Source of the DNA: Sandaracinaceae bacterium
Lineage (GTDB): Bacteria > Myxococcota_A > Polyangia > Polyangiales > Sandaracinaceae
NCBI GenBank assembly: GCA_044220955.1
Contig: JBGAQA010000064.1
Coordinates: 1-38,582 of the forward strand
Length of the DNA stretch: 38,582 nucleotides
Direction: 5' to 3'
A program made the position numbers and the translations under genes. Position 1 is the stretch's first letter; each line of letters starts with the position of its first letter. The notes under the pieces were generated by a model. It had not been told where the DNA came from and ran no database searches. It worked only from the letters and a program-made list of their open reading frames with translations. This document shows positions 16,027 through 20,253 of the stretch, piece by piece.

Positions 16027-16065
16027 CAACACATTGTTGACAGTGCCGATGCGGGAAAACATAGA
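16027..16065 (+). promoter_or_regulatory. Sigma-70-type -35 (TTGACA) overlapped by palindrome CAACA-N3-TGTTG; candidate promoter/operator of the Rrf2 operon
   Basis: TTGACA 16037-16042; inverted repeat 16027-16039; AT-rich island in a GC-rich background; weak -10. Confidence 0.5.
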
Positions 16066-16080
16066 GAGAGCCAGGACGGC

Positions 16081-16539
16081 TTGAAACTGTCGAACAAAGG
16101 GCGGTACGGCGTGTGCGCGATCTTCGACATCGCGTTCCACAACGACGGTCGGGCGACCCAGATCAAGGAGATCGCCGAGCGACAGGCCATCCCCGCGCGC
16201 TTCCTCGAGCAGATCTTCCAGGATCTCAAGCGCGCGGGCCTCGTCGCGTCCCGGCGCGGTCCCCGCGGGGGCTACCAGCTCACCAAGCCCGCCGCCGAGA
16301 TCCGGATCGGGGACATCGTCCGCGCCCTCGAGGGCCCGATCGAGCTGGCGCCGCGCGGCGAGGCCGGCGACTCCGAGGGAGACGCGACGAGCCGCACCGT
16401 CGCCGAGGAAGCGTTCGCGGACGTCTCGCGGCGCATCGAGGCGTGCTTCGACGCCGTCACCATCGAGGCGCTCTGCGCGCGCGGCGAGGCGCTGGGTTTC
16501 CGTCGCAAGCCCCCGAACCGCTACGTGTACGTGATCTGA
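16081..16539 (+). CDS. Rrf2-family transcriptional regulator, CymR-like
   Basis: TTG start MKLSNKGRYG; IKEIAERQAIPARFLEQIF..LKRAGLVASRRGPRGGY; no IscR three-Cys cluster; C-terminal YVYVI. Confidence 0.92.
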   Translation: MKLSNKGRYGVCAIFDIAFHNDGRATQIKEIAERQAIPARFLEQIFQDLKRAGLVASRRGPRGGYQLTKPAAEIRIGDIVRALEGPIELAPRGEAGDSEGDATSRTVAEEAFADVSRRIEACFDAVTIEALCARGEALGFRRKPPNRYVYVI

Positions 16540-16540
16540 C

Positions 16541-17392
16541 ATGGCCGCCGTCGTCGAGAGTGTCCTGTCCCTGATGCAGGGCACACCGCTCGTGCGGCTG
16601 CGGATGGGCGGGCCCGCCGCCGTGTGGGCCAAGTGCGAGCACTTGCTCCCGAGCGGATCGCTCAAGGACCGCGTGGCCGACGCGGCGCTCGCCCGTTCCG
16701 GCGCCCGCGCCGGGGACGCGGTCGTGGTCGCGTCGAGCGGCAGCAGCGCCGCGGCGCTCGCGATCGCCGCCAGGCTGCGCGGGGTGAAGCTCGTCGCGGC
16801 GATGCCCCGGAGCATGGCCCTCGAGAAGCGCAGCCTGCTCCGCGCGCTCGGCGCCGAGCTCGTCCTCACCGAGCCCGAGCAGGGCATGCAAGGCGCACGA
16901 ACGACGGCCGCGCGCATCGCGCGCGAGCGGGGCGTGCCGCAGGTCCGCATCGACGAGGAGGACGGGGCGCGCGTCATCGCGGACGAGATGGTCGCGGCGC
17001 TCGGGGCGGTGCCGGACGCCGTCGTCGTCGGCGCCGGCTCGGGAGCGACCGCGCGCGCGATCGCGGCAGGAATGCGCGCGCATGGCGGCACCCGGGTGGT
17101 CGCCGTGCGCGCCACGAGCCCCACGACGCGGATCGCCGGACTCTCGGCGGACCCCGTCCGCGGGATCGACGACACCCGGACGGTCGAGGACGCGCTCGCC
17201 TGGAGCACGGCGCGGCGCCTCGCCCGCGAGGAGGGCTTGCTCGTCGGCCCGAGCGCCGGCGCCTGCGCGTGGGTCGCCTGCGAGCTGGCGAGCGAGCTGC
17301 CGGCGAGGGCCTGCGTCTGCACGCTGCTCGCCGACACGGGAGAGCGCTACTTCTCGATCGCGCAGTTCTTCGCGCAGGAGCCGCACCGGTGA
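16541..17392 (+). CDS. Degenerate cysteine synthase (CysK-like PLP fold II) protein
   Basis: TPLVRL, SGSLKDR (PLP Lys), EEGLLVGPSAG and DTGERY retained; TSGNT reads SSGSS, the QFxN segment is absent, GTGGT reads GSGAT; only 283 aa. Confidence 0.85.
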   Translation: MAAVVESVLSLMQGTPLVRLRMGGPAAVWAKCEHLLPSGSLKDRVADAALARSGARAGDAVVVASSGSSAAALAIAARLRGVKLVAAMPRSMALEKRSLLRALGAELVLTEPEQGMQGARTTAARIARERGVPQVRIDEEDGARVIADEMVAALGAVPDAVVVGAGSGATARAIAAGMRAHGGTRVVAVRATSPTTRIAGLSADPVRGIDDTRTVEDALAWSTARRLAREEGLLVGPSAGACAWVACELASELPARACVCTLLADTGERYFSIAQFFAQEPHR

Positions 17393-18120
17393 TCGATCGG
17401 GTGCTCGTCATCGGCGCCGGGGGCCTGGCGACGCCCGTCCTCTCGATCCTCGCGCGCAGCGTGGATGCCGCGGTGACGCTCGTCGACGACGACGTCGTGG
17501 ACGAGACGAACCTGCACCGGCAGCTGCTCTACCGCGACGAGGACGTGGGGCGCGCGAAGCTCGACGCGGCTCGCGAGCGGGTGCGCGAGGTGGCGCGCGG
17601 CGCGGGACGTGCGCTCGAGGTTCGCACGATCGAGGGCCGCTTCACGCCCGAGTGCGCCCTGCGCCTCGCCCGCGAGCACGACCTGGTCTTCGAGGGCGCG
17701 GACAACCTCGCGACCAAGTTCCTGGCCGCCGACGCAGCCCACCTCGCCGGCCGGCCGATCGTGCAGGCCGGCGTCGTCCGGTGGGCCGGCTGGGCGCTCG
17801 CGACCTCGCCGCGAGGGGGGGGCGCGTGCCTGCGCTGCGTCTTCGAGGACGTCCCGACCGATCGGGTCGAGACCTGCGCGAGCGCCGGCGTCGTGGGCTC
17901 CGTCGTGGGCGTCGTCGGCGCGCTCGCGGCGGCGCTCACGGTCCGCGCCTTGCTGGGCGACCCGGCGGTCGGGGGCACGCTCCATCACCACGACGCGCTC
18001 GCGGGCACGCTACGACGCCGTCACGCCCGACCACGTCCGGACTGTCCTCTCTGCGGTGCTCGTGCCAGCATCCGCGCGATCGACGAGACGCGCTACGCGC
18101 CCGTGGCGTGCGCGTCTTGA
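17389..18120 (+). CDS. MoeB/ThiF-family adenylyltransferase lacking the N-terminal Arg-finger segment
   Basis: GTGA overlap with the upstream stop; starts directly at VLVIGAGGL; DDDVVDETNLHRQ, GADN, CLRC, TCASAGVVG, CPLC; no rhodanese domain. Confidence 0.9.
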   Translation: MIDRVLVIGAGGLATPVLSILARSVDAAVTLVDDDVVDETNLHRQLLYRDEDVGRAKLDAARERVREVARGAGRALEVRTIEGRFTPECALRLAREHDLVFEGADNLATKFLAADAAHLAGRPIVQAGVVRWAGWALATSPRGGGACLRCVFEDVPTDRVETCASAGVVGSVVGVVGALAAALTVRALLGDPAVGGTLHHHDALAGTLRRRHARPRPDCPLCGARASIRAIDETRYAPVACAS

Positions 18121-18178
18121 GGCGAAGCGGCACGGAGTCGTGTCGCCCTTCGACGCCTCCGCTAGACCAGGAGACCCC

Positions 18179-18457
18179 ATGGCCATCAAGGTTCGCATCC
18201 CCACTCCGCTCCGTACGTTCACCAAGGGCCTCGACGAGGTCGAGGTCGAGGGCTCGACGGTCCGCGCCGCGATCGACGATCTCGAGAAGAGCTACGCGGG
18301 CATCAAGGATCGCATCTGCGACGACAAGGGCGTGCGCCGCTTCGTGAACATCTTCCTCAACGAGGAGGAGGACATCCGCTTCCTCGACGGGCTCGACACG
18401 GCGCTGAAGGCCGGCGACTCGCTCCAGATCGTCCCGGCCATCGCCGGCGGTCGATGA
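18179..18457 (+). CDS. MoaD/ThiS/CysO-like ubiquitin-fold sulfur carrier
   Basis: CAGGAG RBS; VRIPTPLRTFT...RRFVNIFLNEEEDIRFLDGLDT...IVPAIAGGR, very CysO-like; diglycine followed by one Arg. Confidence 0.93.
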   Translation: MAIKVRIPTPLRTFTKGLDEVEVEGSTVRAAIDDLEKSYAGIKDRICDDKGVRRFVNIFLNEEEDIRFLDGLDTALKAGDSLQIVPAIAGGR

Positions 18458-18819
18458 GCGGCGCGCCTCGCCTGCGCTACGTCCGCCAGTACGTGCTCGC
18501 CGAGATCGGCACCGACGGGCAGCGGCGGATCGAGGTCGCCGAGGTGCGCGCCGGCGACGGCGACCCGCGAGCGCTCGAGGTCGCGCTCTCGTATCTCTCG
18601 CGCGCCGGGATGAAGCGGAACGACGACGACGGCGCGCGAATCGACGTCGTGGCTTCGGAGGAGGTCGCGCGGATCGCCGGACGGACGGAGCTGCGCGAGG
18701 CCGCGGCCTTCCTCGCCGGCGCGCTCGCGGCCACGGCCGAGCTGGCTCGCGTCGTCGGCGTCCGCGCACCACCGATCGCGCGCGTCCCGGCGCTCACGGG
18801 GGAAGATGAGCGCGCATAG
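18454..18819 (+). CDS. Small degenerate ThiF/MoeB-like protein (putative inactive E1 subunit)
   Basis: ATGA overlap; RYVRQYVLAEIGTDGQRRI matches the MoeB N-terminus; P-loop region eroded (GDGDPR); YLSRAG retained; C-terminal FLAGALAATAEL helix. Confidence 0.75.
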   Translation: MSGAPRLRYVRQYVLAEIGTDGQRRIEVAEVRAGDGDPRALEVALSYLSRAGMKRNDDDGARIDVVASEEVARIAGRTELREAAAFLAGALAATAELARVVGVRAPPIARVPALTGEDERA

Positions 18820-19735
18820 CCGCGCCCTGGAGCGCATCACCGACGCGGTGGGCGAGACACCCCTGGTGCGGCTGCGCGCCATCCAGAGGGCCGAGTGCCC
18901 GGAGGTCGACCTCTACCTGAAGCTCGAGTACCAGAACCCGGGCGGCTCGGTGAAGGACCGCCCTGCCCTGCGCATGATGCAGGAGGCCCTGCGCGCAGGC
19001 GCCCTCACCAAGGACAAGATCCTGATCGACTCGACCAGCGGGAACACCGGGGTCGCCTACTCGATCTTCGGCGCGGCGCTCGGCGTGCGCGTGATGCTCG
19101 TGATGCCCTCGAACGTGTCGCAGGCGCGCAAGGACATCACGCAGGCGTTCGGCACGGAGCTGGTCTACTCCGATCCGATGGAGGGCTCGGACGGCGCGAT
19201 CCGTCTCGTGCGCGAGATGGTGGCGGCGGAGCCCGCCCGCTTCTTCTACCCGGACCAGTACTCGAACCCGAACAACCCGCTCGCGCACTACCACGGCACG
19301 GGGCGCGAGATCCTCGAGCAGGTCGGCGATCGGATCACGCACTTCGTGGCGGGGCTGGGAACGACGGGCACCGCGATGGGCACCTCGCGCCGTCTCCACG
19401 AGCACGGCCGCAAGATCCACTGCGTCGCCGCGGAGCCGTCCGACGCGATGCACGGGCTCGAGGGGCTCAAGCACCTGGCCTCGTCGATCGTGCCGGCCAT
19501 CTTCGACGCGCGCGCGGTCGACGAGCGCATGGCCGTCGGGACCGAGGAAGGCTGGGACATGGCCGAGCGGGTGCTCCAGGAGGAGGGGCTGCACGTCGGC
19601 CACTCGACCGGCGCGAACGTCTGGGCCGCGGTCGCCCTGGGCCAGCGCATCGGGCGGGGCTGCGTCGTCACGATCGCCTGCGACCGCGGCGATCGTTATT
19701 TCGAGCCGCTGCGCTGGGAGAGACCGAAGAAATGA
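18806..19735 (+). CDS. cysM: Cysteine synthase, CysM-like (intact motifs)
   Basis: KLEYQNPGGSVKDR, DSTSGNTG, PDQYSN, GLGTTGT, HGLEGLKH, CDRGDRY; next to Ubl and JAMM genes as in CysO-dependent pathways. Confidence 0.85.
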   Translation: MSAHSRALERITDAVGETPLVRLRAIQRAECPEVDLYLKLEYQNPGGSVKDRPALRMMQEALRAGALTKDKILIDSTSGNTGVAYSIFGAALGVRVMLVMPSNVSQARKDITQAFGTELVYSDPMEGSDGAIRLVREMVAAEPARFFYPDQYSNPNNPLAHYHGTGREILEQVGDRITHFVAGLGTTGTAMGTSRRLHEHGRKIHCVAAEPSDAMHGLEGLKHLASSIVPAIFDARAVDERMAVGTEEGWDMAERVLQEEGLHVGHSTGANVWAAVALGQRIGRGCVVTIACDRGDRYFEPLRWERPKK

Positions 19736-20253
19736 GCGCTTCCGACGACGACACCTGGATCCGTGGCCCGATCCGCGTGACGCGCGAGGTGATGGAGGCC
19801 GTGCGCGCGCACGCGAAAGAGGCGTACCCGAGCGAGTGCTGCGGCTTCATGTCGGGCCCCGCCTCCGACCCGCCGCGGGTCGACGCGTCCGAGCGTGCCG
19901 TGAACGAGGCCGACCGCTACCACGCGCTCGACCCGGAGCGCTTCCCGCGCACCTCGCGGACGTACTTCAAGATGAACGAGCTCAAGGCCGGCAAGGCCAT
20001 CGACCGCGGCGCCACGACGGGCAGGCCCGTGAAGGTCATCTACCACTCGCACTGCGACGCGGCGAAGGCAGGCGCGCGCGGCGACTACTTCAGCGCCGAG
20101 GACGCGGCGACGTTCGCGCAGGGCAACCAGCTGATGTGGCCCTGCGCGTTCGTCGTGGTGAGCGTCGAGGCAGGCGAGCCCGTCGGCCAGCGACTCTGGG
20201 TCCACCGGCCCGGCACCGATGCGTTCGACGAGGGCGTGCTGGAGATCGAGTGA
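19732..20253 (+). CDS. JAMM/Mov34 (M67, Mec+-like) metalloprotease
   Basis: ATGA overlap; HAKEAYPSECCG (catalytic Glu), YHSH...FSAED (HxH...SxxD). Confidence 0.92.
   Translation: MSASDDDTWIRGPIRVTREVMEAVRAHAKEAYPSECCGFMSGPASDPPRVDASERAVNEADRYHALDPERFPRTSRTYFKMNELKAGKAIDRGATTGRPVKVIYHSHCDAAKAGARGDYFSAEDAATFAQGNQLMWPCAFVVVSVEAGEPVGQRLWVHRPGTDAFDEGVLEIE

Follow-up and report, generated by a model that had tools for sequence, protein, structure and literature searches.

The passage from the symmetric MoeB/ThiF homodimer to the active/inactive pair of the canonical E1 (ubiquitin-activating) enzymes is a textbook transition. In the eukaryotic SAE1-UBA2 and NAE1(APPBP1)-UBA3, the inactive and the active adenylation subunits reside on separate chains. 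Here we analyse a window of 38,582 nucleotides from a Sandaracinaceae bacterium (contig JBGAQA010000064.1 of assembly GCA_044220955.1; the window is the whole stretch of DNA analysed), in which two genes of one operon appear to encode such a pair, on either side of the gene for a ubiquitin-like protein (Ubl). E. coli ThiF and MoeB have been described as symmetric homodimers with two active sites (PMC12355090), and the preprint PMC10557695 presents the previously known bacterial E1-like proteins as homodimers apart from the single-chain BilD of the BilABCD system. BilD (PDB 8tyz) is a bacterial inactive/active pseudo-dimer with one active site, whose key Arg9 comes from the inactive half (PMC10557695). 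In the yeast Tcd1-Tcd2 heterodimer of the ThiF family, the inactive paralogue lends both an arginine finger and stability (PMC13139853). BilD and Tcd1-Tcd2 are the nearest precedents for the arrangement considered here. No two-gene bacterial E1 is named in the parts of PMC11354881, PMC12355090 and PMC2888440 that were consulted, and our literature search found no description of one; subscription papers outside that search may bear on novelty.

The locus shares with the E. coli ThiF-ThiS and MoeB-MoaD systems (PDB 1zud, 1zfn, 1jw9) the adenylation fold and catalytic residues of its large subunit (E-value 3e-28) and a ThiS-type carrier; the finger of ThiF, Arg11, is matched by Arg11 of the small protein. 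It differs in that finger and active site are placed on separate genes and that the partner amounts to about half a domain. With SAE and NAE it would share the division into an inactive and an active chain, and to this extent the parallel to eukaryotic E1s drawn in a preliminary description of this DNA holds for the architecture. It does not extend to the biochemical setting: neither subunit contains cysteine half-domains or a ubiquitin-fold domain, the large open reading frame (ORF) being a bare ThiF domain of 243 residues, the inactive subunit is far smaller, the context is one of sulfur transfer, and no E2 is found among the operon genes examined (Rrf2, PALP, ThiS, PALP, JAB). BilD is a single chain with a CYS domain that acts in E2-linked protein conjugation and defence (PMC10557695), whereas here two genes stand in a sulfur-metabolism operon, and Tcd1-Tcd2 is eukaryotic and tRNA-modifying, with both subunits full-length and a nearly dispensable finger (PMC13139853). 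The mycobacterial CysO-CysM-Mec system with MoeZR and the operon class 4c of Iyer et al. 2006 (PMC1779556) combine Ubl, JAB protease, cysteine synthase and an E1-like gene in one neighbourhood, as here, but their E1 is a single-gene fusion with a rhodanese, and no inactive E1 partner is mentioned in the part of that paper relevant to them. The two genes in question are the following (positions in the window).

17389-18120, + strand: active-type adenylation subunit of 243 residues, a ThiF/MoeB domain without the N-terminal arginine-finger helices (Pfam ThiF, motifs and structural model)

18454-18819, + strand: putative minimal inactive adenylation subunit of 121 residues (family-profile matches to ThiF/MoeB; predicted partner of the product of 17389-18120)

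The large ORF begins with a GTG codon overlapping the stop codon of cysK. Its product matches Pfam ThiF with 161 bits (cut-off 28) over model positions 22-237 of 238, and aligns to residues 30-245 of E. coli ThiF with the E-value given above. The motifs listed in the preliminary description are all in place, namely GAGGL (9-13), NLHRQ (41-45), C147xxC150, T162-C163 and C219xxC222; the P-loop, Arg44 (equivalent to ThiF Arg70), Lys57, Asp105, both zinc CxxC pairs and Cys163 are intact. Across a 67-row alignment, composed of the query and 66 of 70 paired loci, the adenylyltransferase residues (P-loop, NLxRQ arginine, lysine, Mg-binding aspartate, zinc CxxC) are invariant or nearly so. What is missing is the N-terminal RYxRQ helix with its trans arginine. 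The AlphaFold model opens with strand E4-8 (predicted local distance difference test, pLDDT, 94.8), in agreement with the earlier observation that the protein starts at the first beta-strand. A scan with the large-subunit alignment recovered 285 relatives. In none of the best 80 of these, nor in any of 19 more distant loci, do the 60 in-frame residues preceding the P-loop contain an RYxRQ-like motif. The in-frame sequence upstream, likewise already considered unlike ThiF, is an off-frame shadow of cysK, with a G+C content by codon position of 0.98/0.68/0.58 versus 0.80/0.55/0.91 in the large ORF. A frameshift or a misplaced start was ruled out: the three upstream frames contain no ThiF N-terminus, and the truncation is common to 80/80 loci. 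The closest named loci belong to Sandaracinaceae and Polyangiales assemblies. At the other end of the protein (window 18091-18114), a conserved Arg-Tyr...Cys tail (Arg235 in 63/67 rows, Cys241 in 60/67) is found where MoeZ has an Asp-Tyr...Cys tail, and might possibly provide a cis arginine or a sulfur-carrying cysteine.

The small ORF contains RYVRQ (8-12), GDGDPR (34-39), YLSRAG (47-52) and GALAATAEL (89-97), and has no zinc motif, precisely as had been reported. In terms of ThiF, it retains the N-terminal helices with Arg11, beta1, helix 2, beta2 and the C-terminal dimer helix, without P-loop, NLxRQ or CxxC. Searched alone, it yields weak matches to MoeB/ThiF families (E 0.009-0.07) and none to Pfam ThiF. 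The suspected homology emerges with family profiles: 22 of 23 family members match a MoeB model at E <=0.1 (best 5e-12), the small-family profile matches the N-termini of ThiF/MoeB structures in the PDB together with their last helix (E 5.6e-6), and a profile of 147 rows (the query with 146 of the 150 representatives listed, after removal of four long ones) matches E. coli ThiF at E 9e-9, aligning to ThiF 1-59 and 198-224 and to MoeB 4-94 and 199-220. By alignment, Arg11 of the small protein corresponds to ThiF Arg11 and MoeB Arg14. It is arginine in 144/147 homologues (one lysine, two gaps) and Arg8 in 104/147, while the P-loop and NLxRQ occur in none of the 147 rows and CxxC in one. A position of a different kind is Arg50 (residues 50-52, window 18601-18609), which is kept in 145/147 Polyangiales-type partners and lies inside the predicted interface described below; MoeB and most of the longer partners of other classes carry alanine there.

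The model of the small protein (pLDDT 91.9) was also compared with known structures. The top five matches all belong to the E1 superfamily: MoeB (Z 8.1, root-mean-square deviation 3.2, 114 residues aligned), APPBP1 (Z 7.7, 3.2, 111 aligned), Uba4 (7.6), MccB (7.5) and PaaA (7.3), values that by themselves fall in the middling range. It further aligns to BilD residues 4-192 (Z 6.1) and to SAE1 (Z 5.6). Foldseek gave no match at E <=0.001, although ThiF, MoeB and Uba4 chains fill ranks 1-14, with ThiF first and a best E of 8.5e-3. The codon bias of the gene is genic (G+C content at third positions 0.90), and the ratio of non-synonymous to synonymous substitution (dN/dS) is 0.14-0.28 in five closer pairs, against 0.08-0.19 for the large gene, and 0.42-0.57 in four distant high-G+C pairs. 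On these sequence and model data, the small ORF is a genuine gene under selection, derived from ThiF and of the inactive type. A profile-profile comparison of the small with the large subunit found no similarity (probability 0.2), which fits the loss of different parts by each. Both genes nevertheless hold homologous segments, i.e., beta1, the helix after the P-loop and the last dimer helix. Because their homology overlaps in this way, the two genes are better described as degenerate duplicates than as two pieces of one cut gene, and simple fission is ruled out.

The pairing of both genes recurs widely. When loci were chosen by the large gene alone, the small gene was found downstream in 75/80; in four of the remaining five (L043, L059, L076, L099) the contig breaks off too early, and the fifth, L082, has an isolated large gene, with Ubl, small gene and JAB elsewhere in its genome. 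In two loci (L081, L095) the large and small genes are adjacent with no match to Ubl, cysteine synthase or JAB in the locus. Among 41 relatives, 32 have the truncated E1, 29 of these with the small gene, six have neither, and three have the small gene at a contig end with the large gene unscored. In the wider phylum, 20 regions were hand-picked for short frames or long coverage among 150 listed matches; in all of them a ThiF gene has a small-type gene downstream of it, and in 19/19 with a visible N-terminus the ThiF gene is truncated. Other classes account for seven of the regions and other orders for three, and there the partner is longer (129-190 residues) and nearer to MoeB. The pair is conserved across Polyangiales and other Myxococcota classes, with the exception of one genus without a detectable small gene (see below). 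A phylum-wide search with the small profile matched 222/251 genomes, a figure that is unusable as a count of small genes since the matches are mostly MoeZ N-termini. One genome (G015, locus L248) has an Rrf2-Ubl-JAB locus without either E1 subunit, which suggests that its Ubl can be served by MoeZ. Open frames that run through two neighbouring genes were also observed. In L119:3836-4894 the truncated E1 is in frame with the Ubl (ThiF plus ThiS in one open frame), either as a fusion or because a stop codon has been lost, and the small gene and JAB come next; in L092:5041-5592 the small subunit continues in frame into the JAB protease as far as the contig end.

The large and small proteins were then folded together with ATP, alongside three controls. 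The complex scored 0.92, versus 0.01 for the best control; the same mark is reached by 116/157 solved complexes and 2/215 mismatched pairs, a calibration that is only roughly applicable, as our runs used their own alignments and included ATP. At least 90% of the contacts are common to the runs, and the partner pLDDT is at least 89. The predicted interface joins residues 7-17, 44-52 and 79-98 of the small protein to 39-46 and 164-186 of the large one, the closest contacts being those of small helix 83-94 on large helix 171-182, and takes in the RYVRQ segment of the former and the NLHRQ loop of the latter, as in the MoeB dimer. It is quite probable that the two proteins form a heterodimer.

Both genes belong to a run of seven overlapping same-strand (+) genes at 16027-20253, the order being Rrf2, CysK-like, ThiF-family, ThiS-type Ubl, the 121-residue ORF, CysM-like and JAB. 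The Ubl gene lies between the two E1 genes, as first described. The other members of the operon are:

16027-16539, + strand: Rrf2-family regulator, first gene of the operon (Pfam Rrf2, E 8e-36)

16541-17392, + strand: divergent CysK/CysM-like pyridoxal-phosphate enzyme of 283 residues (Pfam PALP, E 5e-43; NCBIfam cysKM, 150 bits against a cut-off of 344)

18179-18457, + strand: ThiS/MoaD/CysO-type ubiquitin-like sulfur carrier (Ubl) with a Gly-Gly-Arg C-terminus (Pfam ThiS, E 3e-13; SAMP1 and moaD_arch below cut-off)

18806-19735, + strand: CysM-like cysteine synthase (NCBIfam cysM, 320 bits against a cut-off of 394; Pfam PALP)

19732-20253, + strand: JAB/Mec-type metalloprotease (Pfam Prok-JAB, E 5e-13)

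The Rrf2 gene is kept upstream in most related loci. The CysK-like protein is short, and far under the family cut-offs. As in CysO-CysM-Mec, a Gly-Gly Ubl, a CysM-like enzyme and a JAB protease are found in one operon, with a CysM score under the equivalog cut-off. Given Rrf2, the cysteine synthases and JAB as neighbours, the operon points to sulfur-carrier activation and not to protein conjugation. The operon contains no rhodanese or sulfurtransferase, a promoter/terminator scan revealed nothing exceeding chance, and the sequencing runs listed include no RNA. On another contig, the genome encodes a full-length ThiF protein (MoeZ) with an N-terminal rhodanese-like part (read from sequence) and an intact RYSRH motif. 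The genome also has a TcdA-like match and three ThiS/MoaD genes. In relatives, a TusA sulfurtransferase domain is fused to the C-terminus of the truncated E1 in L117:4306-5208 and L120:2396-3283, and probably in L121. Both cysteine synthases are missing from the operon in several relatives (e.g., L044, L098 and the close relatives L029, L031 and L032), which makes the end product less certain than the activation step.

The following model can be proposed for the action of the pair. The JAB protease would remove the terminal Arg of the Ubl, a single residue, exposing Gly-Gly, and may later release the product. The large and small subunits would assemble into a dimer that is asymmetric and has one active site. 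In it, the 243-residue subunit would bind ATP, Mg and Zn and carry out the adenylation of the Ubl at its C-terminal Gly-Gly, while the 121-residue subunit substitutes for the second protomer of the MoeB homodimer. The last helix of the small subunit would pack on that of the large one, and its N-terminal helix with Arg11 would lie beside the ATP loop of the partner, stabilising the enzyme and probably raising its rate. Ubl-AMP would then be sulfurated to the thiocarboxylate, candidate donors being the rhodanese-bearing MoeZ or a TusA-type carrier, and the thiocarboxylate would be used by the CysM-like enzyme, its probable acceptor, as in the mycobacterial CysO-CysM-Mec route. The catalytic steps, the sulfur source and the product are all deduced here from gene content and homology.

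As to its origin, one ThiF/MoeB gene would have been duplicated, and the copies would have lost complementary parts. Among 80 metagenome loci, mostly with ordinary full-length E1s, one (L191:4067-8964) carries two full-length E1 copies in the order cysK-E1-thrC-Ubl-NIL-E1-JAB, and another (L215) shows the E1-thrC-Ubl-E1 part of it. These loci possibly represent the state before the split of the two copies. Loci L122 and L124 have the gene order of L191, but the first E1 copy is truncated and the second degenerate. Together with the partner sizes, which descend from full-length copies through 190, 147-159, 129-148 and about 120 to 89-100 residues, this suggests E1 duplication followed by complementary decay. 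When 27 truncated and 55 full-length E1s were placed in a quick-mode tree, the truncated ones fell on one side of a branch (Shimodaira-Hasegawa-like approximate likelihood ratio test 99), but the first copy of the two-copy loci did not come out as their sister. Of the 55, the first copy of L215 was the best profile match and that of L191 the seventh. Because the tree does not confirm the ancestor link to the two-copy loci, this link rests on gene order. The pair probably derives from a bacterial MoeB duplicate, independently of the eukaryotic heterodimeric E1s.

A number of observations weigh against an obligate pair, or against the pairing itself. Since MoeB and ThiF dimers are solved, the complex score may mirror likeness to them rather than binding, and inter-protein mutual information is not enriched at the interface, with 5 of the top 50 pairs against 3.4 expected (67 paired rows, effective number of sequences 31). 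A genus of the same family, g3 (G007, G023, G292, G017), retains an N-truncated E1 in which the catalytic motifs are preserved, and searches of its genomes brought up no small gene. The genomes concerned are nearly or fully complete (G007, one contig, 100%; G023, two contigs, 100%; G292, 96%; G017, 99%). In G007, G023 and G292 the order is Rrf2-cysK-truncated E1-Ubl-cysM-JAB, with cysM directly after Ubl; in G017 the truncated E1 stands alone, and there is no close Ubl match. Three small-family profiles and Pfam ThiF on G007, G023 and G017, and one profile on G292, recovered only MoeZ N-termini, a very divergent copy being conceivable. In addition, a 2026 paper describes the MoeB Arg14/ThiF Arg11 finger as not essential: Tcd1 R59A cut activity by only 26%, Tcd1 was needed mainly for the solubility of Tcd2, and E. 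coli TcdA works without the finger (PMC13139853). A short UBA5 isoform without the N-terminal extension still activates UFM1 (PMC12355090). Finally, a complete MoeZ in the same genome could activate the Ubl, mycobacterial MoeZR being known to serve MoaD and CysO alike (PMC3227635). Since g3 has lost it, the small partner seems strongly favoured rather than strictly required. The preliminary proposal of subfunctionalised duplicates forming a heterodimer consequently stands with respect to homology, complementary motif loss, co-occurrence and a predicted MoeB-like dimer, but the word obligate is put in doubt by the g3 genomes. The predicted interface includes the RYVRQ segment; the finger as the reason for pairing is called into question by the literature just cited.

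The changes in g3 themselves admit more than one interpretation. Position 106 of the E1, which directly follows the Mg-binding Asp, is Asn in 67/67 partner-bearing E1s and Arg in three of the four g3 genomes (L216/G007, L217/G023, L246/G292), the E1 of L218/G017 retaining Asn106; all four g3 E1s also depart from the consensus of the 67 rows at positions 34, 87 and 108 and at predicted-interface positions 16, 172 and 186. In this single lineage, the substitutions look like remodelling after partner loss, and Arg106 is possibly a cis replacement of the finger. It has a nearly even chance of being true that the heterodimer is strictly obligate, the large subunit being inactive alone for want of the trans arginine, and that g3 survived through such compensatory changes; Arg11 is near-invariant over very diverse homologues and the g3 substitutions go in this direction, but MoeB, ThiF and Tcd1 reportedly do not depend on the finger, G017 keeps Asn106, and the changes may be drift, because the four genomes are one lineage. 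A second possibility, which we consider unlikely, is that the large subunit is active as a homodimer without the finger, and that the small protein is a folding aid, or a regulator or inhibitor competing for the dimer surface, and not a catalytic complement. The persistence of the truncated E1 in the four g3 genomes, the activity of short UBA5 and TcdA and the solubilising role of Tcd1 would agree with it, yet an inhibitor need not keep the finger arginine at 144/147, the large and small genes share one operon with translational coupling, and the part lost from the large-gene N-terminus is exactly that kept by the small gene. Pairing of the large subunit with the full-length MoeZ, which would supply finger and rhodanese and leave the small protein as an accessory, is very improbable: such a rhodanese-ThiF protein exists here and in nearly all relatives, g3 included, and the operon has no sulfurtransferase, but selection on the small gene would go unexplained, as would its linkage to the large gene where other genes are lost. 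There is next to no chance that the small ORF represents a pseudogene in decay or a frame that is open by accident, for which the missing Pfam match and the lack of profile-profile similarity could be invoked; 296 clusters (50% identity) match at E <=1e-10, the best 150 spanning 92-210 residues, dN/dS is well under 1, the model is confident, and conservation across orders and classes refutes this candidate.

Taking all the above into account, we lean, with some reserve, towards a two-chain bacterial active/inactive E1 that arose independently of SAE/NAE by duplication of a sulfur-carrier MoeB and complementary decay, with intermediates ranging from two full-length copies to a partner of ~90-120 residues, about the smallest possible, and with one genus that would have escaped dependence through a cis arginine beside the Mg-binding aspartate. 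To the preliminary description, the present work adds the partner-less genus, the reported non-essential finger and the partner size series. A function is hereby proposed for a few hundred protein clusters now labelled hypothetical or unnamed. A small two-gene bacterial E1 makes it testable what an inactive subunit minimally supplies, whether the arginine, stability or both, and the system offers graded intermediates together with a natural partner-loss lineage. If this reading is true, the family would offer a natural set of stages on which to test how asymmetry evolved in homodimeric E1s.

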